This document shows, piece after piece, positions 2,712-32,072 of a DNA stretch of 36,784 nucleotides (position 1 is its first letter; every line of letters starts with the position of its first letter). The DNA is from Candidatus Binatia bacterium (GTDB lineage: Bacteria > Desulfobacterota > Binatia > Bin18), in contig JBGPOI010000003.1 in assembly GCA_041487975.1 (NCBI GenBank), positions 1 to 36,784 of the forward strand. The letters run 5' to 3'. The position numbers were made by a program, and so were the translations under genes. Below the pieces are notes generated by a model. It saw nothing but the letters and a program-made list of their open reading frames with translations. It had not been told where the DNA came from and ran no database searches.

Positions 2712-4370
2712 TCACTCGATGTATCCCAAATCTCTGAGGCGTTCTTCAATCTGACGCGCTTCCCCGGCATCAAGCCCTGTCGTCGCAGAGAGGCCGGTGC
2801 TGGTGGGCGACCCGAGCTGCACTGGCTGGGTGCTGAGGTGCTCCCCGGTAAAGAGGTCGGTTAGGACCTTGCCGTCCATATCGCTGGGAATGGGCTGACC
2901 TTGCAAGTACAGAATCGTCGGCGCGATATCGTAATGCGTCGCGTTGGCCACTGTCGCGCCCCGTTTGATGGACGGCCCGCACGCGATCAGGATGCCCTCT
3001 GAGCGATGAACGCCATACCACCCTTGCCCGAGTCCACCGCGAGGTGGTGGTTCGATCACGATGGACTGGCCGTTCGCGTGATAGCCTAATCCATTTCTCA
3101 TCACTGTCTCGTCCCACTCAATCACTAAATCAGCTGCCTGTTCCGCATACGGTCCACGATAGAGATCTTCGCGTCGATAGATACCGCGAATGAGACGGTC
3201 AGCGGAGAGCGGATCCGTCAAGCCCCATAAGATCTCCCGCACCTCTTCTCGCAGGCGCTCATAGTCCCGGTCTGGGACTATACCTTCCGGTTGCCGCCCC
3301 TGGAGATTGATATAAACTCGACCTCCAATTGGACTGGCGAATACTCGAGTTTGCGACCATTCGATTCCTCCATAGGTAGACTCAGTGACGGCCTGGAGGC
3401 GAATTTTCGGCAAGGCCTGAGCTAGATGGAGTTGCAGTCGGGGGGGAAGGTATCGTCGCCCGAAAAGCAAGAGGTGCTTGAGCACCTTGCCCGTCAAGCG
3501 ATTTCCCCCTTTGCGGTACCGGAGGAATCCCAAGCGTGCTAAGAGCGCGTTCAATCCACCCCAGTTTGAGCGTAGCGGTCCAAATCCGTGATCGGACAGC
3601 ACCAGCACCGTTGTGTTCGCATCAATATGTCTGAGCACCTCGCCCAGCTGCGCGTCAATGTGTTGATAGAGTTGGCGCAGAGGTATCCAGCCGGGATGCT
3701 CAGCAGAGACCGGCTCGTGTGGCCAGTAGTAATGCTGCATGCGGTCCGTGGCGACAAAGACAGCCATCACCGCGTCCCAGGGATAGCTCTCCATCAAGTA
3801 CAGGAGAGCGCGGGCACGGGCCTCCACCATCTGTTTCACTGACAGTGGCATCTGCCGAGGCGCCCGTTGGCTTACCTCTTTCAGGTTTGCGACATCAATG
3901 ACGTAGTCGATGCCAACGCGCCGTAGCTGGTCGTACAGGCCAGGAGGATGGGTAAAGCCAGGGCTGTGGATGCCAGGTGTGTCCATGCCGCTCAACATAA
4001 AACCATTGATGGGGTCGGCTGGGTAACTGATGGGGACGTTGATGACGCCGACTGTTTGCCCGGCTGCGCTGAGTAAGCGCCAGAATGGGTCTTTGCGGCG
4101 ATCGGCGGCCGTAATCGGGTGCCACGTCTGACCACGCTGGGACGGGGCGTCGCCAAAATCATAGACGCCGTGCTGGCCGGGGTTATAACCGGTAACGATG
4201 GAACTCCAGGCGGCAGCGCTGTTCATATTGGGCCAGGCCGGCAAGCGTCCGTGAACACCGTGTTCCATCAGCTTGGTCAAGTGGGGCAGATACCCCGCCT
4301 GCGCCCAGGGCGTGACGAGGTCAAACGTCGCGCCATCCAGACCAATAATAAGGGTGCGTGTTCTACTCAT
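2712..4370 (-). CDS. alkaline phosphatase superfamily protein (type I phosphodiesterase/nucleotide pyrophosphatase-like)
   Basis: IIGLDGATFD, SAAAWSSIVTGYNPGQHGVYDF, LSDHGFG, GVHRSEGILI, DIAPTIL and C-terminal ERLRDLGYIE. Start taken at MSRTRTLIIG. Confidence 0.88.
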   Translation of the reverse strand: MSRTRTLIIGLDGATFDLVTPWAQAGYLPHLTKLMEHGVHGRLPAWPNMNSAAAWSSIVTGYNPGQHGVYDFGDAPSQRGQTWHPITAADRRKDPFWRLLSAAGQTVGVINVPISYPADPINGFMLSGMDTPGIHSPGFTHPPGLYDQLRRVGIDYVIDVANLKEVSQRAPRQMPLSVKQMVEARARALLYLMESYPWDAVMAVFVATDRMQHYYWPHEPVSAEHPGWIPLRQLYQHIDAQLGEVLRHIDANTTVLVLSDHGFGPLRSNWGGLNALLARLGFLRYRKGGNRLTGKVLKHLLLFGRRYLPPRLQLHLAQALPKIRLQAVTESTYGGIEWSQTRVFASPIGGRVYINLQGRQPEGIVPDRDYERLREEVREILWGLTDPLSADRLIRGIYRREDLYRGPYAEQAADLVIEWDETVMRNGLGYHANGQSIVIEPPPRGGLGQGWYGVHRSEGILIACGPSIKRGATVANATHYDIAPTILYLQGQPIPSDMDGKVLTDLFTGEHLSTQPVQLGSPTSTGLSATTGLDAGEARQIEERLRDLGYIE

Positions 4371-4384
4371 AGAAGTGGGACCTT

Positions 4385-5269
4385 TCACCTGCGCAGCGGG
4401 CGAATCCCTAGCGATTCGGGATCCGGCAAATCCCGGGCCGCCGGCTCGAGCCGGCAATAGTCGGCGAAAGTCATCAGTTCAGGATTGGTCCAGAATTTAT
4501 CCACGATTTGCCGGTATGGCGAAGTTGGGTTTTTCTCTAACTGATAGACACCACTCCCCCGATCTTTTTTCATCCCCTTCACGTGAAAAAAGAGAAACCC
4601 AACGAATGAATGGATCAACCAGCGGGTGCGCAAGACTTCAACTCGGGGATGATGACGAAAGGTGTGTCGGCTGCCTACCGGCCAAAAGCCGATGTCTCGC
4701 TTCCCCCCAACGCTGGGTCTGGGCTTGAGCACATAAATCTTGCCATCCTCATCCCACAAATTAACACCGCTGAACCACCAATAGCCGCGCTTCCACGGTG
4801 ACCGCCACCAGGACAGCGTTCCAGGTTTGCTGCGCCGCAACCGATCCACTACTCGTCCCAGGGGCTCCGGTGCGGCGATCGTATCACCGTCCCACTTAAC
4901 ACACACTTGATACGAGGCCTTGCTCAAGGCAAAGTTGTAGTAATACACTAAACTGCTCAGGTGGTGAGCCGGAAGGGTGCGGTGTTGATCGCTGCCTTGC
5001 GGAAACACTTCAGGTACATAGTGAAAAGCCTTAACTCGCTGGGGTTCGCACTTGGCAAATTTCTCAACGATTTCCGGGGTGCGATCAGTGCACTGGTTAT
5101 ACACGATGACGAACTCGTCAAAGAAGGGCAGGATGGAGTTGAGAGCTGCTTCGACAAAGTCTTCCTCGTTCCTCAAGCGCAATATCGCAGAGATTCCACA
5201 CTTCTTTCTGCCGGGAGAGAAATCTTCTGGAGTGAAAGTTGGGTGCTGCACGGTTTCAATCATAGACAA
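4385..5269 (-). CDS. GT-A fold glycosyltransferase (GT2/CgtA-like)
   Basis: ISAILRLRNEEDFVEAALNSILPFFDEFVIVYNQCTDRT N-terminus and a KWDGD DxD motif. Confidence 0.75.
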   Translation of the reverse strand: MSMIETVQHPTFTPEDFSPGRKKCGISAILRLRNEEDFVEAALNSILPFFDEFVIVYNQCTDRTPEIVEKFAKCEPQRVKAFHYVPEVFPQGSDQHRTLPAHHLSSLVYYYNFALSKASYQVCVKWDGDTIAAPEPLGRVVDRLRRSKPGTLSWWRSPWKRGYWWFSGVNLWDEDGKIYVLKPRPSVGGKRDIGFWPVGSRHTFRHHPRVEVLRTRWLIHSFVGFLFFHVKGMKKDRGSGVYQLEKNPTSPYRQIVDKFWTNPELMTFADYCRLEPAARDLPDPESLGIRPLRR

Positions 5270-5340
5270 AGAATTCTTTCACACAGCTTGAGAGAAAGTG
5301 AGGCATGACAAGAAGTGATTCCTGTCAATAGACCGCGCCA

Positions 5341-6594
5341 TCAGGCCCTTCCCAATGCGAGACCGCGAGCCGTGGCGATCTCAGAGATCAGCGCAAAGTA
5401 CCGCGCCAAGTGAGCTTCCACCGTCCAGTGCTGTTGGGAAGCTTGGTAGCCCTGCTGGCCCAGTTCGCGTCGGGCTGACGGATTCGCCAACAGGCGCTCT
5501 ATCGCCGCTACCAGTTCCTCCTCTGTATCATAGGCGCATCCGCCGCCGCTGGCTGAGATCACCTCCGGCATCCCTCCCAAGTTCCTCGCTATGACCGGTG
5601 TTCCCTCGCTGAAGGCCTCAAGTATCACCAGAGGGAACACCTCGAAACAAAGCGACGGAACAATCACCGCCACGGCTTTTCGGTACAAGGTCTGCAGTTG
5701 TTCACCCGACTGGTAGCCGAGGAAGTGGATGTTGGGGCTGCCTTGGGCTAATTCTCGCAACCGGGACTCGTAGCTTCCCGTGCCAGCGATTAATAACCGA
5801 GCTTTGCCGTAGCGAGCGAAGACAGGGATGAGCGTCTGCAGGCCTTTGACCTTCTCCATTCTCCCCACAAACAGAAAATACGGCTCCCTGGTTGTGCCGT
5901 CCATTGCTGGCGCGGATGTTGGCGGCGCCGCCTGAGTCGATGGCATAAAACTCGGCAGATGTGCGACGCGGGCGTCGAACCCTCGCTGACGGTGTAGGTC
6001 TTGACTGAAGCGGCTCGGACTGAGAAAGGCATCCACATGTTTGACCGCGGCTTTCAGCAGGCCGGAGTACCGCCACCACTGCGGCGGACGCTTGTCGGTC
6101 AGTTGACAGGCGAAGCAATACGGCTGCACGCAGGGCGCTCGATTGAAGCGAAACAGCACATGCGTGGGGCAGATCAACCAGTACTCGTGCATGGTGTAGA
6201 GCTTGATCCCCTGCCCATATTCTAGGATTTTCGGCCCGCCGACCAGTGAGATGTTGTGATAGTGGATGACGTCAAAGCCCTTGGCGAGAATCTGCCGGAT
6301 ACGGGTCGCTTTGAAGAACGGGAAGCCCGTCTGTTGCGTGGCCAGCGGAGAAAGAAAGCCGAACGGGCTCTGCAGCCCGTGTACCGTCACCTTGGCATGA
6401 TCGTCATAAGTCCCGGCTGGTTCCTCGCGCGTCAACAGGCGGTAGGCATCGATGCAGTGGATCACCTCCACCTGATGCCCACGCTGCGCCAGCTCGTTGG
6501 ATAGCTGGTGCACAAAGATTCCATCCCCGCCAAAGTTGTAGGGAGGATAGAAGGTGGTGATCATACAAAAACGGAGAGGGCGATCCGTCATCAT
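5341..6594 (-). CDS. glycosyltransferase family 4 (GT-B)
   Basis: MITTFYPPYNFGGDG, FLFVGRMEKVKG and VPSLCFEVFPLVILEAF (EX7E). The ATG overlaps the upstream stop (ATGA at 6594-6591). Confidence 0.9.
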   Translation of the reverse strand: MMTDRPLRFCMITTFYPPYNFGGDGIFVHQLSNELAQRGHQVEVIHCIDAYRLLTREEPAGTYDDHAKVTVHGLQSPFGFLSPLATQQTGFPFFKATRIRQILAKGFDVIHYHNISLVGGPKILEYGQGIKLYTMHEYWLICPTHVLFRFNRAPCVQPYCFACQLTDKRPPQWWRYSGLLKAAVKHVDAFLSPSRFSQDLHRQRGFDARVAHLPSFMPSTQAAPPTSAPAMDGTTREPYFLFVGRMEKVKGLQTLIPVFARYGKARLLIAGTGSYESRLRELAQGSPNIHFLGYQSGEQLQTLYRKAVAVIVPSLCFEVFPLVILEAFSEGTPVIARNLGGMPEVISASGGGCAYDTEEELVAAIERLLANPSARRELGQQGYQASQQHWTVEAHLARYFALISEIATARGLALGRA

Positions 6595-7486
6595 GACCAA
6601 TCCGTTGTCAGGTTCTTCTGGGCCCAATTCTGCACCATTTGCAGCAGGTGGTCCTGCCCCCACAGCAACGTGAACGTGTGATTCACGCCAGCAACGACTT
6701 CCATCGGCAATAACCCAGATTCCTGCCATTTCCGCACTTCACCACCGAGAACTACAGAGAGGTAGTCCAGGCTCTCATCGCCCTCGGAATAGATATGGAG
6801 CAGACGAACGCCACGCTCAGCAAGTAACCGCAGCGCGTCTGTCGCAGCGGTAACCTCGCTCAACCTATTCTCTTTACGCCCCCACAGGCTTCTTAATCCG
6901 GAGCCAATCACCGTCGGTAAGATCCTGCGATAGTCAACTCTCCCGGTCAGTGCTTTCCAGCAGTTCTTCGCGCGAAATGAGCTAGAGAAGATGATTCGCC
7001 AATAATGACGGGCGAGAGTGCGAGTTTTCATCGAGGTCTGCAACCCATCCGTATCGTCATGGAGATGCCCGCGAGGATTGATTAGGATAGCGCCGACCAC
7101 GCGCGGATCGCTGCACGCAGTGTGAAACGAGATTGTGGCCCCTGAACAAATGCCCGTGAGCACGAATCGCTCGCTGCCTCTGGTGGCCCCCAAGTAGTCC
7201 ATAGCTTCTTGAGTCTCGCTGATGGCGCTCTGGCGGAACGGTAGCGTATCGTCACGCACGGGGCTATCCCCGATCCCGGAGAAGTCAAAGCGCAATACCA
7301 CGAACCCCATCGCCGCCAAAGTTCTCGCCATTTTGACGTACAGACGATTCGGACCGACGCGGTGGATGATGCCGGCATTCAAACAGACAATGGCCGGAAG
7401 CTGCGGTTTTTTTTTGCTTCTGGCGGGTCGCTGATGATCCCTACCAAATATCCCATTTTGCCAAACAGCACCGCCTCCTCTCTCAC
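6591..7486 (-). pseudogene. alpha/beta-hydrolase with Cys nucleophile (exosortase-associated 'hydrolase 1'-like); frameshifted at an A9 run
   Basis: GTG 7486 (GTGA overlap, GGAGG RBS) reads MREEAVLFGKMGYLVGIISDPPEAKK. The body, KPQLPAIVCLNAGIIHRVGPNRLYV..RFDFSGIGDS..TGICSGA..NHTFT, is in the -1 frame after the A9 tract (7407-7415). Confidence 0.75.
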
Positions 7487-8292
7487 GAGTACACCTCCGC
7501 GAGCCAAGCAACGACAGACTGGAGGACTTGATGTGGCACCAGGACCTCGCCCAAGTCTTCTCGCCAGACCCAGAACTGAGGATAGGGAAGATGCTGATAG
7601 CTCACGTAAGCGTCCAACTGCTGCAGATGCTCTAGCAATCGTCGCTCACCGGCCTTTTCCTGGCTTTCGATCACGAGGAGATGCTTGGCTGGTTTCTGCG
7701 GCAGGGTTGCAAGATCTATGCTCTCAAGTTCCGTCAGCAGGCCCTTCGTGAGAGGGAATCCCAGTATTTCCGTCTGTGTTTCATCGGCTTGGGGCTTCTG
7801 CTGCACATGCGCGCGTCGCAGCATTTCCTGATGCAAGAGTTTCAACTCCGCAACGTAGGCTTTGCCGCTGACCACCGGGTCCCAAAGAACCATCCCATCA
7901 ATGTCTCCTCGCCCACTTCCGACCATCAGCGACAGCGTCCCTCCTAAGCGCAGGCCAACCAAACAAATCCGCACCATACCGCTCCTGCGGCGGATTTCAG
8001 CAACAGCCGTGGCAATATCGGTCAGCCACTGCTGCACAGCTGTCTCTGCGCTGTCGCCGCTCGAATCGCCGCAGCCATAGAGGTCAAAGCGCAGAACAGG
8101 AAAGCCGATCTGAGAGAGGCGGACGGCCAACTGACGATAGGCACGGTGGAAGCGGATGTATTCGTCCCCCAGCGGATGGCAGAACACCACAGCGCAATCT
8201 CGAGGGGGTGCCGATTGTGGCCTATGGTAGCAACCAAAGAGGGGTCGGCTAGGCGTACCGAAGTAGAAGGGGGCTATTTTTTCTCTAGGCAT
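7483..8292 (-). CDS. alpha/beta-hydrolase fold protein lacking the nucleophile (exosortase-associated 'hydrolase 2'-like)
   Basis: PFYFGTPSRPLFGCYH, RFDLYGCGDSSGD, LVGLRLGG (Arg where the nucleophile normally sits) and LWDPVVSGKAY. Confidence 0.82.
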   Translation of the reverse strand: MPREKIAPFYFGTPSRPLFGCYHRPQSAPPRDCAVVFCHPLGDEYIRFHRAYRQLAVRLSQIGFPVLRFDLYGCGDSSGDSAETAVQQWLTDIATAVAEIRRRSGMVRICLVGLRLGGTLSLMVGSGRGDIDGMVLWDPVVSGKAYVAELKLLHQEMLRRAHVQQKPQADETQTEILGFPLTKGLLTELESIDLATLPQKPAKHLLVIESQEKAGERRLLEHLQQLDAYVSYQHLPYPQFWVWREDLGEVLVPHQVLQSVVAWLAEVYS

Positions 8293-8329
8293 GTGAAAAG
8301 GCGCCGAACCGCTCTGCCGATCGGCAGAT

Positions 8330-9157
8330 TTAGCGGGGACGAAAAACCAGCGTCGGACACCGCTCTGCCAGTTCATACTGGGCAACATGCACGGCGATGG
8401 CTTCGAAACGATCGGACAAAGTCGTCTGTACTTCCCCCAGCGTTGGAAACGAAAAGCGGGTATCATCATTCACAACTGTCGGGTGAATCGCCTCTGCCGG
8501 CCATCCGGTCTGCGCCGCTACCATGTCCCGGTCAATGTCAGCGTCCCTCCAGGCCTGCCAGAAACCGTCCGCGCGGACGCCCTCGCGCGGGTCCTCCTGC
8601 AGAGCCATCGTCAACCGCCACCTGAACACATGAAAAGATCCGATTCGTCCGGCTTTCAAGTCCCGGAAAACAGCTTGCGGCTTCTCACTGGCTTCGGGTC
8701 GCACGAAGAACCGCATGAGGAGCAGGCCCGGCTTCTGTAAAACCTGTTGCAGCGACGCCGCGAGGGTGCGATACCCGTCGGGATATGGCATGCAGCTAAA
8801 ACAACCATCTCCGACCACGAGATCAAACCAAACATCGGCCTGCGGCAGCCTCAGCCAATCGCCCCGCTCAGCCCTGCGCCGACCCGCAATATCACCCGGC
8901 CAGACCAAGTGTAGCATCGCTTCGTTCTGATCAATGGCCAAGAGTTCCGTTCCCTCCGGCCATGCCATATGCGCAATTTCAGGCGTAACCCCACACAGCA
9001 GGGCTTTGCGGCTCCCGCTTGAACCATTGACGTGCCAGGCAGCCACAACCTCTTCCATGATCTTGGTATCGTCCTGACCGGGACGCAAGGGCGAGCCTAT
9101 CCGCTGAAAGTTTCGTGCCTGTCGATCCCAGTGGACGCGCTCACTTTCCCTACACAT
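8330..9157 (-). CDS. class I SAM-dependent methyltransferase-like protein
   Basis: HW..GSPLRP, LLCGVTPE (degenerate motif I), LAIDQN, GDWLRLP, FDLVVGDG and LQKPGLLLMR. Start inferred at MCRESE. Confidence 0.7.
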   Translation of the reverse strand: MCRESERVHWDRQARNFQRIGSPLRPGQDDTKIMEEVVAAWHVNGSSGSRKALLCGVTPEIAHMAWPEGTELLAIDQNEAMLHLVWPGDIAGRRRAERGDWLRLPQADVWFDLVVGDGCFSCMPYPDGYRTLAASLQQVLQKPGLLLMRFFVRPEASEKPQAVFRDLKAGRIGSFHVFRWRLTMALQEDPREGVRADGFWQAWRDADIDRDMVAAQTGWPAEAIHPTVVNDDTRFSFPTLGEVQTTLSDRFEAIAVHVAQYELAERCPTLVFRPR

Positions 9158-9200
9158 ACAGCGCTCTTCCTTCTCTCCACGTATTCGAGCTGATTGGTAG

Positions 9201-12200
9201 TTATATCCGGTGCAATACCGCTCTCTTCGCGGCAGTCCACAGTCTCCGGGTAAAGCTCTGGGGTCTCGCTTGGAGCATACGATGTCTCCGTTCTTCACAA
9301 GTTGCCGCAAGTTGACCGAGGGTTTGGATGACCAGTTCCCTGGGATTAATTCGCAAACCTAATTCTTTCTCGACTCGGTGAACGACTTTTAAGGATAACA
9401 GTGAATGTCCTCCGAGATCAAAAAAATTGTCGTAGACGCTAACGCGGTCCACGCCGAGGACCCGCGCCCACATACCTGCCAGCATCATCTCGGTCGGGGT
9501 ACGCGGTGCGACGAAGGCGGCTTCCGGCCCAGGATTGGTCTGGTCGGGCTTGGGCAGCGCTTGCAGATCCACTTTCCCACTGGCAGTAAGCGGCAACGTG
9601 GGCAAAAACACGAACGCGGAAGGGATCATGTATTGAGGGAGTTTCTCCCGCAGGAAGCCGCGCAGTTCGTTCACCGGCGCAGCAACGTCCGGTTCGGCGA
9701 CCACATACGCCACCAAACGCTTGTCATGAGGCTCATCCTCCCGAGCCATCACCACGGCCTCGCGTACAAGCGGGTGCTGCCGCACCACGGTCTCGACCTC
9801 TCCCAGTTCGACGCGAAAGCCACGAATCTTCACCTGCAGGTCGGTGCGACCGATAAACTGGATGTTCCCATCAGGAAGGTAGCGGGCCAGGTCACCCGTG
9901 CGATACAGCCGCCCTTGGCGAGCGTCGCCAAACTTATCGGACACGAAGCTTGCAGCCGTCAGTTCCGGGCGGTTGAGGTATCCGCGCGCCACACCAGGGC
10001 CCCCAATATACAACTCACCCGGCACACCGATCGGCACCGGGTTGTCGTACCCATCAAGCAGATAGATTCGGGTATTGGCGAGAGGCCGCCCGATCGGAAC
10101 CGAAGGAAGTGGACCATGAGCCGAGCTCTCGGCTTCATAAACGGTGGCAACACATGTCGCTTCCGACGGCCCATAGGCATTAAACCAGCGGATGCGGCTG
10201 CCCACTTTTCGCTGCCACTCCGCCAACAGGTCTGGTCGCACCTTATCCATACCGGTGATGAAGCAGCGGAGCGAAGACGGGACCAGCACATCACCGTCGG
10301 ACATGGACGTTACCCACTCATGCCAGTAGACGTTGGGCAACGAGGACATGGTAATTTCGTTTTCCTCTAAGAAGCGCAAGAACTCGGCGATCGAAGCAAA
10401 ATCTTGCTGGGGCCGCAAAACCAGCGTCGCTCCCGAGACGAGGGAGAGACAGATCTCGGAGATAAACACTTCCGAGCCCACGGACGCGAATTGCAGTCGC
10501 CGGTCGGCAGTAGAAATACCGAACTTTTCGATCATGGCTAGCGCATAGTTCACAAAAGACCGGTGGGTCACAAGAATGCCCTTCGGGTTGCCGGTTGAAC
10601 CCGACGTATAAACGGCGTAGGCCAGGTTTTCTGGCCCAACGGAACTCTCGGGGGCGCTGGCGCGTTCCAGGGACACCTCATTCCATACCGAGTCAATGGG
10701 GACCACCTCTACGCCAGACTTCTCCAGTCGATCCACGAACGCGCGTTTGGTGATGACAATCTGCGCCCCGGTATCTTGTAACACGTAGTGCAGGCGTTCG
10801 CTGGGAAAGTGCGGATCCAGGGAGACCAGGGCGCCGCCGGTTTTGAGAATGGCCATCATCGCAACCGCCACTTCCGGTGATCGGTCCATGCACACGGCGA
10901 CCAGCGCTTCAGGTCCGACACCTTTTTTTTGCAGCACGCGCGCCAACCGATTGGCTTGATCATTCACTTCTTGATAGGTAACTTTTAGCTCGCCATGCAC
11001 GAGTGCGATCTGCTCGGGGACTGTGGCTGCCTGTCTCTCGAAGAGGTGGTGGACACACTGGTCTTGCGGGTACTCACGCCGGGTGTCGTTCCACTCATAC
11101 AGCACCCGCTGTCGCTCGGCTTCCGTTAAGAGTGGGAGTGTTCCCAGCGGCTGATCGGGATCAGCGACGATACCCGCGAGTAAGACCTGGAAATGGCCCA
11201 GCATGCGCTGGATGGTCGCCGCCTCGAACAGGTCGGTATTGTATGACAATCTTCCCTGAAGCCCTTCTGCCCGCTCAACCAGGGAGAGAATTAAATCAAA
11301 CGGCGTCGTTTCACTTTCGACCTCCAGGGGGCTCGCCGTCAGGCCCGGCAGTTCCACAGCCGGCCCCGGCTCCTTCTCGAGAACGAACATCACCTGAAAC
11401 AGAGGATGCTGAGCGCGCTCCGGCCGCAATTCCTCCACCAACTTCTCGAACGGCAGGTACTGGTGAGCATACGCTGCCAGGGCCATGTCCCGCACCTGTC
11501 TCAGCAACTCGCGAAAACTCAGCTTCCCTGAAAGTTTGCTGCGGAGGACCAAGGTGTTGGCGAAAAATCCAATCAACCCCTCGAGTTCGACCCGGTTGCG
11601 ATTGGCGATGGGAGTCCCGACCAGAATGTCGTCCTGGCCGGTGTAGCGGTAGAGCAACGTCGTGAAGGCTGCCAGCAGCGTCATGAACAGGGTCGCGTCT
11701 TCTTGACGCCCCAAGGCGTGCAGTGACTCAGACAGGCTCTTGGGGAGTTCCAGCGACTGCCGCGCGCCCTGGAAGGTCTGAACGAGCGGTCGTGGTCGGT
11801 CAGTGGGAAGCTCCAGCGCGGGGGGCGCGCCGTCAAGCTGCCGTTTCCAGTAGGCAAGCTGCGTGAGCAAAAGTTCGCCTTGCAACCACTGCCGTTGCCA
11901 AACCGCGAAGTCCGCATACTGGAGAGGCAGTTCAGGCAACGGCGACGGCGCCCCCCTGGAGAAAGCGCTATAGAGAACCGACAATTCCTGCAGGAGGATT
12001 CCCCTCGACCAACCATCGTAGACAATGTGGTGGATCGTCAGCAATAGGACATGCTCCTCCGGGCCCAGCCGCCACAGTGTAGCCCGCACGAGTGGGCCTC
12101 GGCTTAAGTCGAACGGCCGCTGAACCTCCGCGGCGGCCAAGCGGTGAGCTGCGGTTTCCCGCTTGCTCTCCGGCTGATCCTGCAGGTCCACCACCGGCAC

Positions 12201-14318
12201 CGCCAAGGTCAGAGGGGAGACGATGACCTGGCTTGGTTCTCCCTCTCTGGCAGGAAAGATCGTCCGCAAAACTTCGTGGCGACGGAGGATCTCATTAAGA
12301 CTTTGCTCCAGCACGGGTACATTCAGTCGGCCGGTGAAGCGAAAAATTACCGGGCGGTTGTAAACCGACTCACCAGGCTCCCAGCGATTGAAGAACCATA
12401 GCCGCTGCTGGGCATAGGACAAAGGCAAGGTGCGGTCCCGAGGAACAGTCTCGATCGACGGCAACGGTGAGTACCGGACCGTCTGACGCAGGCTCTCGAT
12501 GCGTTTGGCTATCCCAGCCACAGTGGCCGTCGCAAAGAAGTCAAGGAAAGAGAGTTCCACCTGCAGGGCTTGGCGCACCCGGGAAAGAACCTGGGAAACC
12601 AGAATGGAATCTCCACCCAACCGGAAAAAGTGATCGTGAATGCCCACCGACTCAACGCCGAGAACCTCAGCCCAGATCGCGGCCAGTTACTCTTCGACCA
12701 GCGTCCGCGGCGCGGTGTACTGGGCGTTCCCATTCGCTTCGCCGGACGCCGTAAGGCCCAGCTTTTCGGCCAGCCCTAGGCGTTGCACCTTGCCGGTCGG
12801 GCCTTTGGGAATCTCCTCCACGATGAGCACCTGACGCGGCACCTTAAAATCGGCCAAGCGCGCGGCAGCAAACTCCTGAATGTCTCTGGCAGTAATGGAG
12901 GTCCGCTCGCGCAGCACAACGGCCGCGGCGACCTCCTCACCCAGCACATCATGCGGGATGGCAAAAGTGACCGCCTCAGCCACCGCCGGATGATTCATGA
13001 GCATCTCGTCGACTTCACGAGGTGAAATTTTTTCCCCGCCACGATTGATGATTTCTTTGAGGCGGCCGGTGAGGAACAGATAGCCCTCAGCATCCAGGTA
13101 GCCCTGATCACCCGTCCGGAACCAGCCGTTGATAAAGGCGTTTTCGTTAGCCGCGGGATTGTTCTCGTAACCCTGGGTGACGTTCGCTCCGCGGATCACA
13201 ACCTCTCCCAATTCACGCGGTGGCAACAAGCGGCCCGCCTCATCCATGATGGCCACCTCCAGTCCTACCGCAACACCAACCGAACCAACCTTCCGCTGAC
13301 GCGGCGGTAACGGATTGCTCACTATCTGGAGGGATGCCTCTGTCATGCCATAAGCCTCAATGACAGGAGCGTGAAACACACGTTCTAACTCCGCTATCGC
13401 CTGCGGCGGCAAGGCTCCCGCAGAAGAGCGAATCAAGCGCAGCGGACAGCGCGCAATGATCTTATGATGGGCAGCCGCCCGGGCCAGAATCGCTTGGTGC
13501 ATAGTGGGGACGGCTGTATACCAAGTGGGATGAAACTCGTTCAGCCAGGCAAAGAATTCACGCGCGTGAAAACCCGGCGTGCAGACCACACTAGCGCCGG
13601 CCAGCAGCGACGATAGCACTGTTCCTATGAGGCCCAGGCCGTGAAACAGGGGCATCACGTTCAGGCAGCGGTCACCCTCACCGAGTGCGAGAGTCACTCG
13701 AAGGTTATGAGCCGCCGCACAGATATTCGTGTGGGTCAGTGGGACAATTTTCGGCCGCGAGGTCGTGCCTGACGTGTGCAGCACGAACGCCACCTCGTTA
13801 GGTTGAGCGAACCCACCCTGTGCCGGAGACGCAGGATCCCCACCGGTCAACGTGAAGATACCGGCCTCGGCGTCTAACACCGGCGAGAGTTCGATGATCG
13901 AGAGGCCGCGCGCTTGGGCAACGGCCCTGGCCGGCGAGTCGAGTCCGGCTTGAATGAGCAGCGCTTTCGCCCGCAAATCCGACAGATAAAAGTCAAACTC
14001 GTCGGCGCGATAGGCGGGATTGAGCGGAGCCGCCGTAGCGCCGGCGGCAACGGCTAAAAAGGCGACCGCCATCTCGGGCCCATTGGGGAGTACCAGTGCC
14101 ACACGATCGTGGCGTCCCAGGCCTATAGTATTGAGCATCTTCACCGTATCGCTGACGTGAGCGTGCAGGCGCCCATACGTCAGGGCTCTGCGCTCAGGAG
14201 CCAGGCTGGCGAGCGCCTGAGGCGCTCGCCAGCCTGGGTTGCTAGCAAATGAAAGACGCTCAAGTCCTGTTTCATATCGTTCTCCCAGCAGACACGAGCA
14301 AAGGGGGGAACCGGTCAT
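9201..14318 (-). pseudogene. NRPS with A(acyl-CoA-ligase-like)-T-C-A-T architecture, interrupted by an in-frame TAA
   Basis: ORFs 12687..14318 and 9201..12647 share one frame, joined by [37 protein letters not shown] (TAA 12687-12689). A1 HTSGTTSRPK/FRTGDQG, T1 GGDS, C HHIVYDGWS, A2 YTSGSTGNPKG/NAYGPSE/LYRTGDL, T2 GGHS; no TE or R domain. Confidence 0.9.
14201..14237. repeat. perfect 17-bp inverted repeat with 3-nt spacer in the NRPS 5' end
   Basis: CCAGGCTGGCGAGCGCC-TGA-GGCGCTCGCCAGCCTGG. Confidence 0.9.
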
Positions 14319-15076
14319 CCGCGGTTGATTTGCCCAGCACGCCGAATTCTCCGTGGCACACTACGGGCCCAGATGTACCAGGGCAACCAGCGGGTCAACA
14401 TCGTCGCAAACAACCGATCGGTCCGCAGGTAATACGCGTCTACGCGTTCGAGAGCATACAGATCGCTACGGGTCGTAGTCAGACCGAGCTTGTCGGAAAC
14501 TGCACAGGCGAAGTGTTGCTGCACAAGTTCACGGCTCCGCCGGTCATAACGACCATAGGGGTAAGCAAAGCTGGCGACCGCCGCACTCAGAGCATCTTGG
14601 ATAATCGCCTGCGAATCACAGACTTCAGTTTCCACCTGCGCCAAGGGCAGGCGGGTCAGATCTGGATGTGTGAGCGTGTGCGCGCCAAAGTTGAGCCCCC
14701 AGCGGTGCATCTCCTGGATCTCGCGCCAGGCCAACATCGGCCGATCTTCCATCGCCGGCAGCCGGCTCTCTACACACACCTTCCGGTTTTGGCCGACGGT
14801 GAGAAAGACCGTCGCTGACCACCCGTAGTGCTGCAGGACAGGAAACGCCTCGGTGTAGACACTCTGATAGCCATCATCAAACGTCAGCACGAAAGCCCGA
14901 TCCGGAAACGGCTCCCCGTGACGTAAGCCGTCCGCAGCTTCCAGCAAGCTCAGCGCCCGATACCCGCTTTCCTCTAACCTGGCCAGGCCGCGTTGGAACA
15001 CACGCGGCGCGAACGAGATGGCGGATGATCGGTCATCGAGAGCATGGAATGTCAAGATGGGCAGAGAAACCGCCAT
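14315..15076 (-). CDS. polysaccharide deacetylase (CE4/NodB family)
   Basis: PILTFH, VLTFDDGY, ATVFL, GAHTLTHPDL and FAYPYG. Confidence 0.92.
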   Translation of the reverse strand: MAVSLPILTFHALDDRSSAISFAPRVFQRGLARLEESGYRALSLLEAADGLRHGEPFPDRAFVLTFDDGYQSVYTEAFPVLQHYGWSATVFLTVGQNRKVCVESRLPAMEDRPMLAWREIQEMHRWGLNFGAHTLTHPDLTRLPLAQVETEVCDSQAIIQDALSAAVASFAYPYGRYDRRSRELVQQHFACAVSDKLGLTTTRSDLYALERVDAYYLRTDRLFATMLTRWLPWYIWARSVPRRIRRAGQINRG

Positions 15077-15113
15077 GCTCAGCAACCCCCTCCTCTACTA
15101 CTGGCTCCCGTCA

Positions 15114-15560
15114 CTATAGTTCTTCACCAGTAAAGCATTCCCAGAATCGCAGTCCGCAACGACCACCTTCCACGACGAGAGCTGCTGAGTAGCCACTAGC
15201 GGCAGGCACCTGGTACAGAGACCAGATGGAGGCTGATTCTCGATCTCTTATTTCACGCAAAAGCGTCACCACCGTACCCGAAGCTAATGGCACCTCGAAC
15301 CGGTCTAAAGGAAATGACAATCCTTCTCCTCTCGCTTTTACATATGCTTCCTTCCTCGTCCAGCAATGAAAGAAGGCTTCTCGCTACCGCTCTGGCGGCA
15401 GGCCGCAGATTTCACCAGCCTCCCGCGACGAAAAAAAGCGCCTGGCAATCTCTTGAGGTGCGATGTTGCTGTTCAGGGTCTCTACGTCAATCCCCACTTC
15501 GCGCTTGTCGCTAATCGCATACAGAGCCAGGTCTGCCGAGTGCGACAGATTGAATCGCAG
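15114..15560 (-). pseudogene. Sfp-type 4'-phosphopantetheinyl transferase, 5'-truncated and with an internal TAG
   Basis: Hand translation gives LRFNLSHSADLALYAISDKREVGIDVE...IARRFFS...[36 protein letters not shown]. TAG at 15384-15386; no N-terminal half and no start codon in frame. Confidence 0.9.
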
Positions 15561-15617
15561 CGAAGAATCTCATGATCGCGAGGAAAGACGAGACCCTTCG
15601 TTATACTCAGGGTGACA
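15551..15617. repeat. partial palindromic REP/MITE-like element
   Basis: CGCAGCGAAGAATCTC...GAGACCCTTCGTTATACTCAGGGTGACA, with imperfect inverted arms. It resembles a widespread TGTCA..GAG..GCGAAG..TCTC dispersed repeat; the left end is missing. Confidence 0.55.
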
Positions 15618-15641
15618 AGAAGACGGTTTCGTTAGCGGCCT

Positions 15642-15863
15642 TTAGTGTCCGATCTCTTTCTGATGATTTTCGGCGTCAGCTTCTTCGGCTTGGTCAAGTA
15701 GATAGCCCAATTCGCGTAGGGCTTCGCTAATATGGTACGCCACGGCAAGCAGCGACCCATAGGCTTCTTCGTCGGTCTCGTGCAGTTTCAGATGGTCGTT
15801 GATCGTTCCCAAAAGTTCGCGCAGCTGCTCTTCGGCGTTACACAGGTGATCACATGAGGCCAT
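15642..15863 (-). CDS. small acidic helical hypothetical protein (73 aa)
   Basis: GGAGGA RBS before the ATG; MASCDHLCNAEEQLRELLGTINDHLKLHETDEEAYGSLLAVAYHISEALRELG..., protein-like composition. Confidence 0.7.
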   Translation of the reverse strand: MASCDHLCNAEEQLRELLGTINDHLKLHETDEEAYGSLLAVAYHISEALRELGYLLDQAEEADAENHQKEIGH

Positions 15864-16031
15864 GAGGTCCTCCGTTCCGCCAGGCACGGCTATTTTCTTG
15901 CCAGCATTGTAACCAACAATCCGGCAGCCGCCTAGAGGCCGGACGCTTGCGGAATGTGGCATGCGGATTGCGGATTCCGCCAGATTTGGGTATCCAGGAG
16001 CCGAGACTGCCGAGCGAAAGAGGGACAGGTC

Positions 16032-16817
16032 ATGCCGCAAGAGTACCGGACCATCTTAGTAGACAGGGCTGACGGAATCGTCACGATCACGTTGAACCGA
16101 CCGGACGCGCTCAACGCGCTGGACTTGGTGATGCGCGAGGAGCTGGCCGAGACGCTGTCTACCGTCCGCGACGATCCGGAGATCAAAGTGTTAGTGCTGA
16201 CAGGCGCGGGCCGGGCGTTTTGTGCCGGCGGCGATATCAAAAGCATGGGTGGATACACAGTCGTGACCGGACGGGCGCGCATAAAAAAGGCTCATCGCTG
16301 GCTCCTCGAATTAGTCAACCTGGAGAAGCCGACGATCGCCGCGGTCAACGGAGTCACCGCCGGTATCGGCTGCAACCTGGCGCTGGCTTGCGACATCATC
16401 TATGCTTCGGACCAGGCTCGTTTTTCGCAGGCATTCGTCAAGATCGGGCTGGTGCCCGATGGCGGCGGCATGTACTTCCTGCCACGCGCCGTGGGCTTGC
16501 AGCGGGCCAAGGAGTTGGTGTTTACCGGTGACTTCATCGCGGCCCAGGAAGCCGAGCGTATCGGCTTGGTCGCCCGGGTGATGCCGCATGCGGAACTTCA
16601 CCCGCGCGTGTCCGATCTCGCACGCCGCATCACCCGGAACGCGCCGGTCGCGGTGAGCTTGGCCAAGAGCGTACTCAACAAGTCGCTCAACGTCGATCTT
16701 CCTACCCTGCTGGAGATGGAGGCGTTGGCTGCAGCCTCTTGCATAGCCACGGCGGATCATGAAGAAGGAGTGCGCGCGTTCGTCGAGAAGCGCCGTGCGC
16801 GTTTCACCGGGAAATAG
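16032..16817 (+). CDS. enoyl-CoA hydratase/isomerase (crotonase) family protein
   Basis: TITLNRPDALNAL, LTGAGRAFCAGGD, KPTIAAVNG, LALACDI, IGLVPDGG and EGVRAFVEKR. Confidence 0.93.
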   Translation: MPQEYRTILVDRADGIVTITLNRPDALNALDLVMREELAETLSTVRDDPEIKVLVLTGAGRAFCAGGDIKSMGGYTVVTGRARIKKAHRWLLELVNLEKPTIAAVNGVTAGIGCNLALACDIIYASDQARFSQAFVKIGLVPDGGGMYFLPRAVGLQRAKELVFTGDFIAAQEAERIGLVARVMPHAELHPRVSDLARRITRNAPVAVSLAKSVLNKSLNVDLPTLLEMEALAAASCIATADHEEGVRAFVEKRRARFTGK

Positions 16818-17630: not shown

Positions 17631-18443
17631 TCACCCCTGACCACCGGGTCCTTGATTTTCCCCTCTCTCAAGCAAAGGAAAGAGCGCGTGGCACAGCCGT
17701 GACAGGGTCTGGGCGGCGGCAGCGCGTGACCGCTTCAGGGTGAGAAGTGCGGGAAGGTGATGAGGATGAGTCACCACATGGGTCATGGCCTTAAAGGGCC
17801 GGACCTCGCCGTCAGGCGTCGTTAAGCCCTTCATAACCGGGAGTGCCATACCGACCGGATCAAGAATCACACGTAGTGCGAGAAAAGGGAGACCGCGAGT
17901 GCTGGCAAAGGAGGCATGCACGCCACTCTCCATTTCCACCGCGATCGCCCCGGTTACCTCGCCGTGCCGGGCTTTGTCCTCGGGAGTAAAGAGCACTTTC
18001 ACACTGGTAAACAATGGCCCTTCGGCAACCGGCACAGCCGCCTGGGAGGCCGCTGTGCGCGCGTGCACGAGCAAGCGGGGATCTATGGGAAAACGCTCGA
18101 GTCGTGCGCCTGCTGACAGCATCCGCACATCGGGCGCCAGAATGAGCTGACCAGTGGTCAGACCTGCAACTAACGCACCGGCACAGCCAACCGATAAGAC
18201 CGCCGCGAAGGGAACGTCGGTAAACCGTTCCATAGTCTGTCGGGTTCGGCGCGGACCGATACCGCCGGTGACAACGAGCACTTCCCGCTTTCCCGTAGAC
18301 CCACGCCAGACCCGGTCTCCCTCGCGCTTGACCTGGCGCAGTACGGCTCGCACTGCCGCACTCTCCCAGGCAAGGGCGGTAAACACGGCAATTGGCGCGG
18401 AGTCGAACTCGGGAACTCCTGGATCGTCGAAAACGTTGCTCAT
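17631..18443 (-). CDS. hpnG: nucleoside phosphorylase family protein, HpnG-like
   Basis: AVFTALAWE, TGGIG, LSVGCAGAL, AVEMES and LRVILD; located downstream of hpnA/hpnB. Confidence 0.7.
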   Translation of the reverse strand: MSNVFDDPGVPEFDSAPIAVFTALAWESAAVRAVLRQVKREGDRVWRGSTGKREVLVVTGGIGPRRTRQTMERFTDVPFAAVLSVGCAGALVAGLTTGQLILAPDVRMLSAGARLERFPIDPRLLVHARTAASQAAVPVAEGPLFTSVKVLFTPEDKARHGEVTGAIAVEMESGVHASFASTRGLPFLALRVILDPVGMALPVMKGLTTPDGEVRPFKAMTHVVTHPHHLPALLTLKRSRAAAAQTLSRLCHALFPLLERGENQGPGGQG

Positions 18444-18462
18444 CCTGTCTGCTCCTCTTTCC

Positions 18463-19731
18463 TCAGTGGTCTCGCCAGCCGCTGCGCATGCCGGTGACAT
18501 GCCGCACGGCGGAATCGACGGTCATCGCTCCGTACAACATCCCGGCAAGCGGCAGTGTCCAACATCGTATGCCCGGCAAAGCAAAGAAGCGCATTGCCGG
18601 ACGGTAAATCACCGCCATGATTACCCAAGCGCACCAGCCTTCAACTACTAATGCGCTAGTCCAAGCGAAGGAGACCGCTGGCCAGCCCAGCATGCTGGCC
18701 AGCGCTGCGCTGATTCCGCCCATCACCCACAGTGGCGGCAGCAGAAACATCAGCAGCATCCCGATCACGGTCCCAACCAACCGCACCCACGAGTAGCGTA
18801 ACTCGGTAAATGCCGTGCGGCGGACCATCACCCAGATGGCCGCGAGCGAATCATACACGCGTAGGCTCTCGACTGCAGAACGGCTGAGGGCCAGTTGAAT
18901 GGGCTCATTCAGCGCTTTGATTTGCCGCGCCAGGTTCACATCGTCGATGATCTTATCCTTGATGCACGAGAAGCCGCCGGCCCGCTCAAGCGCGGAGGTT
19001 GCCAGCAAGACGCATCCGCCCGCCGCAGCCGCTACGGCACTGCGCCGTGTATTCACTTGCCGCATAGGATAGAGCAGGTTGAAGAAAAAGACGAACGGAG
19101 GAATAAGCAGACGCTCCGCGTGAGAGACACAGCGCAAACGCGCCATCCGGCTATTTAAGGCGAGGTGGTCTCGCTCGCTCTCAGCCACTAAACGTCTAAG
19201 CGATTCTGGTGCGTGGTGAATGTCGGCGTCAGTCAGCAAAAGATATTTTGGCTTGCCAGTGACCACTGAAGGACCTTCTCCCCTCGACAATCCGCAATCC
19301 GCTTCGGCCTGGCTTTTCCATTGGCCATGCAATCCGCAATGGGAAGCGCCTTGCGCAAGTGCCCATACTTTGCCCACCCAACCTTGCGGCAAAGCCGCGC
19401 CGGAGATCACTGTCAGTCGCTCGGCCGCGCCGGATTCCTCGGCCAACCTGCGGGCAATGTCGGCCGTACCGTCCGCGGAGCGATCGTCAATAACAATAAC
19501 GGCGAATTCGCCAGGGTAATCTTGCTGCAGGAGCGAGGGCAGGGTGCGCGGCAAAGATTCACTCTCGTTGCGCGCGGGGACCAGAATGCACACCGCAGGC
19601 CAAACCTGCGGCTCAGGGGGAAGCGCTTCATCGTCACCCACGGGTTGAAAATCCCACGGGCGCGCGGGGTGAAAGAGAACGCCCAACCAGATTAGCATAG
19701 AGATGAAACCGAGAGAAAACAGAATGATCAA
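18463..19731 (-). CDS. hpnB: hopanoid-associated glycosyltransferase HpnB-like
   Basis: VPARNE, DDRSADGT, LPQGWVGKVWA, LLTDADI, AERLLIPPFVFFFNLLYP, AAAAGGCVL, IIDDVNLA and MVRRTAFTEL. The TTG start overlaps the hpnA stop. Confidence 0.88.
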   Translation of the reverse strand: MIILFSLGFISMLIWLGVLFHPARPWDFQPVGDDEALPPEPQVWPAVCILVPARNESESLPRTLPSLLQQDYPGEFAVIVIDDRSADGTADIARRLAEESGAAERLTVISGAALPQGWVGKVWALAQGASHCGLHGQWKSQAEADCGLSRGEGPSVVTGKPKYLLLTDADIHHAPESLRRLVAESERDHLALNSRMARLRCVSHAERLLIPPFVFFFNLLYPMRQVNTRRSAVAAAAGGCVLLATSALERAGGFSCIKDKIIDDVNLARQIKALNEPIQLALSRSAVESLRVYDSLAAIWVMVRRTAFTELRYSWVRLVGTVIGMLLMFLLPPLWVMGGISAALASMLGWPAVSFAWTSALVVEGWCAWVIMAVIYRPAMRFFALPGIRCWTLPLAGMLYGAMTVDSAVRHVTGMRSGWRDH

Positions 19732-20765
19732 TCTTGCCGATCCCCGATCCCTGATGCTTGATCCCTGACCCCTTTCACGTACCCGTTTTCCGCAAACCAC
19801 CGCACCGCCTTGCGCAGTGCGTCGCGGACCGGCGTTTGCGTCCAACCTAATTCACGCACAGCCTTACTGGGGTCGAAGAACATCTTCTTCTTGCTGAGTT
19901 TCACGCCTACCGGGGGGGCAAACGGCTCGCGGCCAGGAATCAAGCGAGCCAAGGCCGCATCCATATAGGCCACGCCGAGAGCGAGAGCGTAGGGCACTTT
20001 GAAGCGCGGCGCCGATCGGCCGGTGAGTTCGGCGAGCAGCGACAGGATTTGCCGCAAGGTAAGGTTTTCATGGCCAAGAAGGTACTTCTCCCCCACCCGT
20101 CCCTTTTCGGCCGCCAGCAAGTGCCCACGGGCAACATCTTCCACGTCCACGAGATTGAGACCGGTATCGACGTAGCCAGGCATCCGGCCGTTGAGAAAAT
20201 CGACAATCAGCTTGCCGGTGGGAGTCGGCTTGAGATCGCCCGTGCCGACCGGGGTGCTGGGGTTCACGATCACTACCGGTAACCCTTCAGCCGCATAGCG
20301 CAGGGCGACCTGCTCAGCCAGAAACTTACTCCGTTTATAATGACCGACCATGTCAGAGAGTGACACCGGGGTCTCTTCGTTGCCAGGAGTACCGTCCTCA
20401 GGCAATCCCAGAGTCGCCACCGAGCTGGTATAGATGACTTTCTCGACTCCACCGTCCCGCGCCGCGGTGAGCACGTTTTCCGTCCCAGTGACGTTGCACT
20501 CGTACATCTCGTGTTTATGCCGCACCCAGAGCTTGTACAGCGCGGCGACGTGGTACACCTGCGCACATCCAGCGGTCGCCCGGCGGAGCGAATCGAGATC
20601 GCGTACATCCCCGTGATAAATCTCGACCGCCAGGTCGCGCAGGTTGCGGCGGTCGGCGGTCGGCCGCACGAGAAGCCGTACTTCATGGCCGGCGTGGACT
20701 AACTCACGCGCCACCCTGCCGCCGACAAAGCCCGTCGCGCCAGTGACCAGCACTCGCATAAGCAT
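19728..20765 (-). CDS. hpnA: hopanoid-associated NAD-dependent epimerase HpnA
   Basis: VTGATGFVG, HVAALY, YTSSVATLG, GHYKRSK and VNPSTPVG.GDLKPTPTGKLIVDFLNGRMPGYVDTGLN. Confidence 0.9.
   Translation of the reverse strand: MLMRVLVTGATGFVGGRVARELVHAGHEVRLLVRPTADRRNLRDLAVEIYHGDVRDLDSLRRATAGCAQVYHVAALYKLWVRHKHEMYECNVTGTENVLTAARDGGVEKVIYTSSVATLGLPEDGTPGNEETPVSLSDMVGHYKRSKFLAEQVALRYAAEGLPVVIVNPSTPVGTGDLKPTPTGKLIVDFLNGRMPGYVDTGLNLVDVEDVARGHLLAAEKGRVGEKYLLGHENLTLRQILSLLAELTGRSAPRFKVPYALALGVAYMDAALARLIPGREPFAPPVGVKLSKKKMFFDPSKAVRELGWTQTPVRDALRKAVRWFAENGYVKGVRDQASGIGDRQD
19737..19771. repeat. degenerate heptamer tandem repeat (5 copies) in the hpnA 3' tail
   Basis: CCGATCC CCGATCC CTGATGC TTGATCC CTGACCC. 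Confidence 0.7.

Positions 20766-30989: not shown

Positions 30990-32072
<1,083 letters not shown>

Follow-up and report, generated by a model that had tools for sequence, protein, structure and literature searches.

How does a non-ribosomal peptide synthetase (NRPS) that lacks a thioesterase (TE) part with its product, and what receives it? The question is raised by 36,784 nucleotides of DNA from a Candidatus Binatia bacterium, here called the window, which is the entire contig C3 of a 5.1-Mb metagenome-assembled genome (MAG; G000) of 669 contigs and 89.4% completeness. On its minus strand, at 2712-15530, lie ten co-oriented reading frames, or nine genes when the two NRPS frames, parted by a stop codon, are counted as one, with overlaps or gaps of no more than 72 nt between them. 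From 15530 down to 2712 the row consists of a piece of a phosphopantetheinyl transferase (PPTase) gene, a CE4 deacetylase, the NRPS, a methyltransferase-like gene, two genes of the alpha/beta-hydrolase fold that we call hyd2 and hyd1, a GT4 glycosyltransferase, a GT-A glycosyltransferase and a PF01663 protein. An earlier interpretation of this DNA, the sequence-only reading, had the hydrolase pair serve a TE-less NRPS in the decoration of a surface polysaccharide. Its nine packed genes stand as to row, orientation and spacing but are ten as frames, the NRPS being split by a TAA codon. It was right that the row's products include no TE, reductase (R), transporter or regulator domain, since none is found by Pfam or NCBIfam. 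Genome mining turns up many TE-less assembly lines, and how they release their product is in many cases obscure.

We give even chances to the following answer: the product of this TE-less two-module NRPS would be off-loaded by a two-protein module, hyd1 with hyd2, which in this lineage is coupled to sugar enzymes. The best supported part of it, judging from gene order and sequence comparison, is the predicted role of hyd1/hyd2 as the off-loading module of TE-less lines.

The evidence for that role comes from the best 80 of 162 confirmed relatives, one genome per species. The loci stem from isolates as well as MAGs, labelled among others Anaerolineae, Binatia, KSB1, Desulfobacterales, Acidobacteriota and Planctomycetota, as well as Gemmatimonadota, Pseudomonadota, Actinomycetota, Bacteroidota and Fibrobacterota; open reading frames (ORFs) in these loci were called mechanically, and the kin behind both counts and tree are not independent of one another. 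Of the 80 loci, 74 have hyd1 after hyd2 on the same strand, within 0.5-1.3 kb. In 78 loci the upstream DNA is long enough to look for a carrier, and in 61 of them a thiolation (T) domain or an acyl carrier protein (ACP) ends between -15 and +200 nt ahead of hyd2. The annotated upstream proteins, NRPSs or hybrids with a polyketide synthase (PKS-NRPS), end in condensation, adenylation and thiolation domains (C-A-T) with no TE. Sometimes the carrier is fused to one partner, as C-A-T-hyd2 in L020 and as C-A-T-hyd1 in P0445. Thus the earlier claim that the pair serves the TE-less NRPS is borne out by the position of the pair after the last carrier. The window is unusual in that its methyltransferase-like gene is wedged between T2, the last carrier of the NRPS, and hyd2. 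The stretch between the terminal C-A-T and hyd2 of a Binatia MAG (L023:5989-9969) holds two large radical S-adenosylmethionine (SAM) proteins, one of them B12-binding.

The two partners also occur as one chain. Single hyd2-hyd1 ORFs of 556-639 aa are present in L070, L076, L081, L093, L095 and L096, the proteins P0489 and P0497 are built in the same way, and P0507 joins hyd2, hyd1 and CE4 in one protein. These natural fusions argue for a joint function of hyd1 and hyd2. Another protein, P0506 (1184 aa), matches the hyd1 profile in five stretches and contains several alpha/beta-hydrolase domains; it may be two tandem hyd2-hyd1 pairs.

A hyd2 tree, rooted on a canonical exosortase-type protein and made by a quick method that leaves many forks open, has two large groups. 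One of 32 rows holds the window. The other, of 28 rows, comes mostly from Pseudomonadota and Gemmatimonadota, in which a PKS is combined with a C-A-T module. Over all loci the code of the terminal adenylation (A) domain starts with DIL in 31 of 45 terminal modules (DILQ.G..W type), which we take to be the glycine type. In its own lineage the pair is rare: the window's hyd2 finds no relative in 40 close relatives of the genome, and at E 1e-20 only 4 of 401 genomes of the phylum have one, G000 included. This fits a horizontal acquisition, as far as such distribution can suggest it. Elsewhere relatives are numerous, with at least 690 for hyd2 at E 1e-10 in a protein collection and 3822 representative clusters for the hyd1 profile at E 1e-30, the latter probably including the exosortase sister family. 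A metagenome scan with hyd2 gave only six distant loci, of 28-37% identity, which were left aside.

What kind of proteins are they? The two alpha/beta-hydrolases of the sequence-only reading keep their fold but not a serine nucleophile: neither hyd2 (7483-8292) nor hyd1 (6591-7511, overlapping the hyd2 stop) has a Gx-Ser-xG motif or a PF00975 match. The residue patterns were taken from alignments of 79 hyd2 and 61 hyd1 homologs. At the nucleophile elbow hyd2 reads GLRLGG, with Arg in 78 of the 79 homologs, and no late His is conserved across these 79 sequences; hyd2 is probably a non-catalytic partner. The elbow of hyd1 is GxCSG (GICSG in the window), in which Cys122 is kept in 60 of 61 homologs, as is His278. 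Probably hyd1 is the acyl-accepting catalytic subunit, and its Cys would form the acyl-enzyme. AlphaFold models of the pair (pLDDT 84 and 83, the former for hyd1) place these residues at the usual point of the fold, Cys122 between strand 116-121 and helix 123-134 of hyd1, and Arg146 between strand 140-145 and helix 147-156 of hyd2. Among known structures the fold search with hyd1 returned esterases, lipases and a PKS TE, the closest at a TM score of about 0.5, and sequence searches of the PDB gave only generic esterases and lipases.

The model of the hyd1-hyd2 complex scored 0.89, and the best of three controls 0.23. Of 80 solved complexes 58 come up to the mark applied to such scores, as do 2 of 110 mismatched pairs; both counts are approximate, since the alignments were self-made. 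At least 61% of the contacts recur between runs, the partner pLDDT is at least 80, and the modelled interface takes in hyd1 residues 46-56, 121-123 and 274-279, which is the region of the Cys and the His. These models point to a heterodimer.

On profile matches the window pair is a sister of the exosortase A-associated hydrolases 1 and 2. Here, hyd2 matches TIGR03101 (hydr2_PEP) with 127 bits, under the cut-off of 202.75, and hyd1 matches TIGR03100 (hydr1_PEP) with 79.1 bits, under the cut-off of 168.45; none of 45 hyd2 proteins from related loci reaches the TIGR03101 cut-off (72-141 bits). A canonical pair can be seen in a Zoogloea genome, which also holds locus L036. Its hydr2_PEP (270 bits) and hydr1_PEP (321 bits) stand directly behind a 100-aa PP-binding ORF and adjoin ligase_PEP_1 (783 bits), dCO2ase_PEP1 (623 bits) and a MOP flippase; in this one pair the elbows read GLRSG and GLCDG, respectively. 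The exosortase cassette (TIGR03101/TIGR03100 with TIGR03098 and TIGR03099) thus resembles the window in the order of carrier, Arg-type partner and Cys-type enzyme and in having an adenylating enzyme upstream, and it adds a MOP flippase and an exopolysaccharide (EPS) context. In contrast, the window pair serves the T domains of an NRPS rather than a free ACP and scores below both cut-offs. The exosortase itself (PF09721) was not found in G000, which at 89.4% completeness is no proof of its absence.

The literature on these hydrolases is thin. Apart from one annotation table, no paper on the function of the exosortase A-associated hydrolases was found in a search that did not extend to subscription journals, and Haft et al. 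2006 (PMC1569441) mentions no hydrolase, ligase, acyl carrier or decarboxylase at all. The table lists Bcam1334, a predicted hydrolase of the TIGR03100 type in the EPS cluster Bcam1330-1341 of B. cenocepacia, whose neighbors are a group 1 glycosyltransferase and a flippase for polysaccharides; the guess offered for its function is glycan quality control (PMC3584217). The likeness of Bcam1334 to the window is one of annotation, and the passages of that paper dealing with the cluster mention no NRPS or hyd2 partner.

A candidate release or transfer module, defined by GxRxG in one protein and GxCSG/His in the other, is spread over many phyla; if our reading of the pair is right, it would account for the paired "exosortase A-associated hydrolases", long annotated without a function. 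A wider proposal is that hyd1/hyd2 constitute a new and very widespread class of carrier-protein-dependent transacylases, obligate heterodimers that would place acyl or peptidyl chains on de-N-acetylated sugars, drawing them from NRPS/PKS T domains or, in the exosortase A cassette, from free ACP. We hold this tentatively, as rather doubtful; were it true, it would be a general bacterial route to peptidyl- or acyl-decorated glycoconjugates and exopolysaccharides.

The other family to which the pair can be likened is that of the NRPS/PKS thioesterases, which share the alpha/beta-hydrolase fold and the position after the last carrier and are sometimes fused to it. Even a Cys nucleophile has precedents in some TEs, for example in the formation of beta-lactones and beta-lactams. 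In contrast to them, the pair consists of two proteins, one without nucleophile and His, and gives no PF00975 match. Some loci have a type II TE in addition to the pair: in L028, L029 and L032 it comes after the pair, and in L040 it is part of a fusion, so the pair is not the editing TE. This L040 ORF (L040:11871-13760), of 630 aa and located after hyd1, has its type II-like TE domain at 399-612; a GT4 match of its N-terminal part was obtained by tblastn only.

How closely are the sugar enzymes tied to the pair? In the window, GT4 (5341-6594; PF00534, 110.9 bits, and PF13439) follows hyd1 with overlapping stop and start codons, and the CE4 gene overlaps in the same manner with A1, the first domain of the NRPS. 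The CE4 protein (14315-15085), a sugar or polysaccharide N-deacetylase, matches PF01522 with 95.1 bits against a cut-off of 23.1 and contains TFDDG and HTLTHPD; TFDD and H(S/T)xxH are the metal and catalytic motifs of CE4 enzymes. Among the 31 loci of the window's clade, eight have a GT4-type gene 1.7-2.5 kb past the hyd2 start, seven of them confirmed by Pfam. Counterparts of the window's own GT4 lie directly after hyd1 in L017 (72% identity), L018 (58%), L022 (61%) and L034 (47%), in MAGs labelled Anaerolineae (two), Binatia and Longimicrobiaceae, and a further GT4-type gene lies by the pair in KSB1, Planctomycetaceae and ANGP1 MAGs. Counterparts of the window's CE4 are found in L017 (70%) and L022 (52%). 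A CE4 gene stands directly after hyd1 in L017 and L022 (between hyd1 and GT4) and, in the other clade, in L035. A flippase of the MOP/MurJ type takes this place in L021, L023 and L027 and occurs also at +5.6 kb in L017; L019 adds a GT10 and two GT2 genes, and Bac_transf is present in L024 and L042. In the window's clade, 14 of the 22 Pfam-annotated loci contain at least one glycosyltransferase (GT), CE4, flippase, Bac_transf or sugar nucleotidyltransferase. The ORF after hyd1 in L027 (L027:2065-4299; 745 aa) has MurJ at 260-701 and a PPTase-like tblastn match in its N-terminal part, and may be a PPTase-flippase fusion.

Could an NRPS cluster and an unrelated glycan cassette simply have become neighbors by chance? 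Glycosyltransferases are common genes, and the GT2 and AlkP-type genes of the window are not kept next to the pair elsewhere. Nevertheless, orthologous GT4 genes after hyd1 in Anaerolineae, Binatia and Longimicrobiaceae MAGs, the overlaps of stop and start codons at hyd1-GT4 and CE4-A1, and the hyd2-hyd1-CE4 protein P0507 make this explanation very improbable. A lack of conserved linkage between NRPS and glycan genes in other genomes, which would have told against the sequence-only reading, is not what we see, because the GT4/CE4 linkage recurs across phyla and is joined by the fusion. The glycan cassette of that reading shrinks, as only GT4 and CE4 recur by the pair: none of the 80 loci has a gene corresponding to GT2, AlkP or the methyltransferase-like ORF, and these three appear, on this comparison, to be window-specific additions outside the conserved unit.

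The step from off-loading to transfer onto a sugar is a longer one, and several points weigh against it, beginning with that shrinkage. None of the 28 loci of the PKS-NRPS clade has an adjacent GT4, and the whole panel of this clade shows a single CE4 (L035) and a single Bac_transf (L058). The pair is therefore not intrinsically glycan-directed; its generic function would be off-loading, and the acceptor may differ or may be water. Instead of glycosyltransferases, L028, L029 and L032 have a type II TE and a sulfotransferase, and L026 and L033 a sulfotransferase alone. The window itself has, by Pfam, no flippase, polymerase, initiating phosphoglycosyl transferase or exporter. An acyl-enzyme does not follow from an elbow Cys alone, the heterodimer is model-based, and the sequenced strain has a stop in its NRPS and only a remnant of its PPTase. 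Nothing in our analysis separates transfer from plain hydrolysis or cyclisation, and GT4 could glycosylate a released product instead.

Hydrolysis followed by glycosylation of the free product is for these reasons a serious rival. Here the pair would be a trans-acting enzyme of hydrolytic or cyclising release, the NRPS would make a small free metabolite resembling an acyl-amino acid, and GT4, CE4, GT2 and the AlkP protein would tailor the free molecule, for example by glycosylation, or belong to an adjacent sugar pathway. Such a picture agrees with the 28 PKS-NRPS loci, with the EamA or ABC transporter or sulfotransferase genes near some loci, as in small-molecule clusters, with the soluble look of all window proteins, and with the esterases, lipases and PKS TE among the fold relatives of hyd1. 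However, plain hydrolysis has no need of a Cys in place of Ser, a dead partner and a composite interface. The P0507 fusion and the CE4 genes after hyd1 in L017, L022 and L035 tie the de-N-acetylase to the pair itself and not to the NRPS, the sister pair sits behind an ACP in an EPS locus, and the separate type II TE just after the pair in L028, L029, L032 and the L040 fusion speaks against the pair being the editing TE. We consider a free product rather unlikely. The sulfotransferase genes near the pair (L021, L026, L028, L029, L032 and L033) deserve mention in their own right: in the Planctomycetota loci L028, L029 and L032 they are accompanied by the type II TE, an ABC transporter and a PKS, which suggests sulfated products in this branch.

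Under the reading that we prefer, A1 would load a small carboxylic acid onto T1, A2, which has Glu in place of the Asp that binds the amino group, would load a second building block onto T2, and the C domain would join the two units. The heterodimer of hyd1 (Cys-His) and hyd2 (Arg) would then take the acyl chain from T2 as a thioester on the Cys and pass it, as our best guess, to a free amine or hydroxyl on a sugar that GT4 would make and the cytoplasmic CE4 would de-N-acetylate. The methyltransferase-like, GT-A and AlkP-family proteins would provide lineage-specific tailoring. In the window's clade a sugar freed of its N-acetyl group probably receives the acyl-X unit, a plausible but unproven step that we infer from the Cys nucleophile, from the order of the genes and the fusion with CE4, and from the sister pair with its link to EPS; the sugar acceptor and all substrates have this inferred standing. 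If it is true, it links non-ribosomal synthesis to the decoration of glycoconjugates or EPS and predicts a new class of products.

This order of events has parallels in the acylation of sugars from carriers. There an N-acetyl-sugar is first formed by a glycosyltransferase; once a deacetylase has exposed its amine, this receives an acyl or aminoacyl group in activated form, which is often bound to a carrier protein. Examples are NodC/NodB/NodA with NodF, LpxC/LpxD, MshA/B/C and BshA/B/C, to which D-alanylation by DltA-D can be compared. The logic of the window resembles that of the Nod factor, lipid A, mycothiol, bacillithiol and D-alanylation systems, but this is no orthology: the CE4 protein has weak matches to PgaB, IcaB and NodB, all below the NCBIfam cut-offs, and GT4 weak matches to BshA and MshA, far below them. 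Unlike NodA, LpxD, MshC or DltB/D, the transferase of the window would be a Cys enzyme of the alpha/beta fold with a dead partner, and its donor would be an NRPS product. No description of a TE-less NRPS with paired hydrolases was found in the papers searched, which did not extend to MIBiG or subscription journals.

Which acceptor would fit? The sequence-only reading named a surface polysaccharide, and this part is not borne out here: the products look soluble, as no signal peptide or membrane segment appears in the non-NRPS products in a crude hydropathy scan, and flippase, polymerase and exporter are missing from the window. Since export and polymerisation genes are lacking there, a small aglycone or a sugar on a lipid may serve as acceptor instead of a polysaccharide, and a small or lipid-linked glycoconjugate fits as well as a surface polysaccharide.

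The NRPS itself offers some indications of the donor. Its A-T-C-A-T order, given by the sequence-only reading, agrees with Pfam, but it is not one open frame. The loading domain A1, of the acyl-CoA-ligase type, occupies 12687-14318 (PF00501, PF13193), and the remainder, T1-C-A2-T2, 9201-12686 (PF00550 in two stretches, PF00668 with 401.9 bits, PF00501 and PF13193). The translation contains the core motifs of a modular enzyme in order (HHIVYDG, GGDS, GGHS) and ends about 30 residues past T2 with no release domain, be it TE, R or a terminal C.

The best PDB relatives of A1 are oxalate-CoA ligases: AtAAE3 (5ie0, 419 bits), LsOCS (6qjz, 407) and the yeast enzyme (8aff, 375), the next relative having 223. 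This ranking made oxalate a candidate substrate. Oxalyl-CoA synthetases alone conserve Ser289 and His319 of AtAAE3 (PMC8905533). In the HMMER alignment of A1 with 5ie0, Ser289 is replaced by Ala and His319 by Leu; moreover, Val215-His216 of AtAAE3 corresponds to Gly-Leu and Ala313 to Gly, so that the pocket gains two glycines. Because these pocket residues differ from those of oxalate-CoA ligases, oxalate was rejected as the substrate, and no papers on an oxalyl-loading NRPS were found. In contrast to the ligases, A1 is fused to a T domain and is the loader of many different NRPSs; at E 1e-30 no fewer than 2496 long proteins of NRPS type begin with such a loader, and their second modules vary.

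The second adenylation domain is peculiar in another respect. The Asp of the A4 motif (FDxS) binds the alpha-amino group of the substrate, as established in the work of Stachelhaus and Conti. In A2 this position holds Glu (the motif reads SE), while among the A domains of the related loci 44 of the 45 terminal ones and 53 of the 60 others keep the Asp. The Glu is shared by the two closest orthologs, P0121 and P0131, and has the look of an unusual but conserved specificity rather than of decay.

Is the system still working in this strain? The in-frame TAA at 12687-12689 splits the NRPS where its first T domain starts, inside helix 1 of T1. Read through with X, the gene has 1706 codons and shows 76% identity, in an alignment of 1672 residues that needs one gap, to P0121, a single-ORF A-T-C-A-T protein of 1692 aa which has Gln at the position of the window's stop. 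We typed the stop allele on contigs of four sediment runs from four studies, contigs of a depth of only 3.7-4.3; one run that carries the locus may be the source sample. Plus-strand position 12689 is G in runs X2 and X3, giving CAA (Gln), and A in X1 and X4, giving TAA. As the contigs of two of the four runs have CAA, the break is recent and polymorphic: the TAA is a real, recent strain polymorphism, not old decay, and near-identical strains carry an open NRPS allele.

The PPTase is broken too. The sequence-only reading had it as a gene; it is of the Sfp/HetI type, but only the C-terminal half is there (15114-15530). Its match to NCBIfam HetI, of 81.6 bits, covers profile positions 113-235 of 235, and a TAG interrupts the frame at 15384-15386. 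Searches by tblastn with two full-length PPTases found no N-terminal half in any frame of 15000-16300. The PPTase of the row is a 5'-truncated remnant without both pseudo-symmetric halves in one frame. A paralog with an intact-looking open frame of 287 aa lies on contig C300 of the same MAG. Since both the NRPS and the PPTase are broken, by the TAA and by truncation respectively, the sequenced strain most likely does not run the pathway.

It may be asked whether the row is in this genome no more than a decaying relic, its NRPS a pseudogene, its PPTase dead and nothing made. Besides the TAA at the start of T1 and the PPTase that lacks its N-terminal half and carries a TAG, the scarcity of hyd2, not found in the 40 close relatives and present in only three further genomes of the 401, would fit a recent and dispensable acquisition. 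On the other hand, the 1706-codon frame is otherwise intact and aligns with its intact ortholog with a single gap, CAA occurs in the contigs of two runs, all other genes are open with their catalytic motifs, and a full-length PPTase frame exists on C300. We regard the relic as possible, yet somewhat improbable. Moreover, it concerns the state of one allele and not the nature of the system.

The remaining genes of the row are those without counterparts at the related loci. The methyltransferase-like ORF (8330-9157; 275 aa) has no Pfam or NCBIfam match; its earlier label is upheld by an Atlas score of 0.99 to clusters of class I SAM enzymes (Methyltransf_11) and by a match to MitM at E 0.018. 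The GT-A enzyme is a CgtA-like GT2 glycosyltransferase (4385-5269; PF00535, 33.2 bits, PF06306, Atlas 0.98), whose PF00535 match covers only residues 28-82, that is 55 residues. The last gene (2712-4370, ATG at 4370) encodes a nucleotide pyrophosphatase/phosphodiesterase of the alkaline phosphatase (AlkP) superfamily (PF01663, 124.1 bits), with no PDB relative at E 1e-5. For these last two proteins, as for CE4 (PF01522) and GT4 (PF00534), the earlier identifications agree with the profiles.

The row is flanked by elongation factor EF-G on one side and by an enoyl-CoA hydratase and a tetratricopeptide repeat (TPR) protein on the other; the promoter and terminator scan gave 11 terminator-like sites against 12.9 expected, which says nothing about where an operon would begin or end. 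Farther off in the window are genes of hopanoid type and mreBCD-pbp2-rodA. The former, at 17631-20765 on the minus strand, are at the Pfam level a PNP_UDP_1 phosphorylase, a GT2/Glyco_transf_21 protein and an NAD-dependent epimerase in series, a trio that presumably corresponds to the hopanoid-associated HpnG/HpnI/HpnA genes. The latter form a complete rod-shape operon, mreB-mreC-mreD-pbp2-rodA, at 26685-32024 on the same strand; its PBP2 resembles most closely proteins from MAGs labelled Deltaproteobacteria bacterium (88% identity) and Candidatus Binatia bacterium (86% and 74%). At 23570-24598 on the plus strand a secreted-looking protein of 342 aa is built of repeats, each some 40 residues long, in which a HAFLY-like motif recurs; it has a weak DUF3466 match and no PEP-CTERM tail. 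Near the contig end (35820-36473, minus strand) an ORF of 217 aa has the N-terminal and central domains of a phage integrase, and its catalytic domain covers only the first 72 of 172 profile positions. Two other contigs of the same MAG, C227 and C384, both short, contain further condensation-domain genes.

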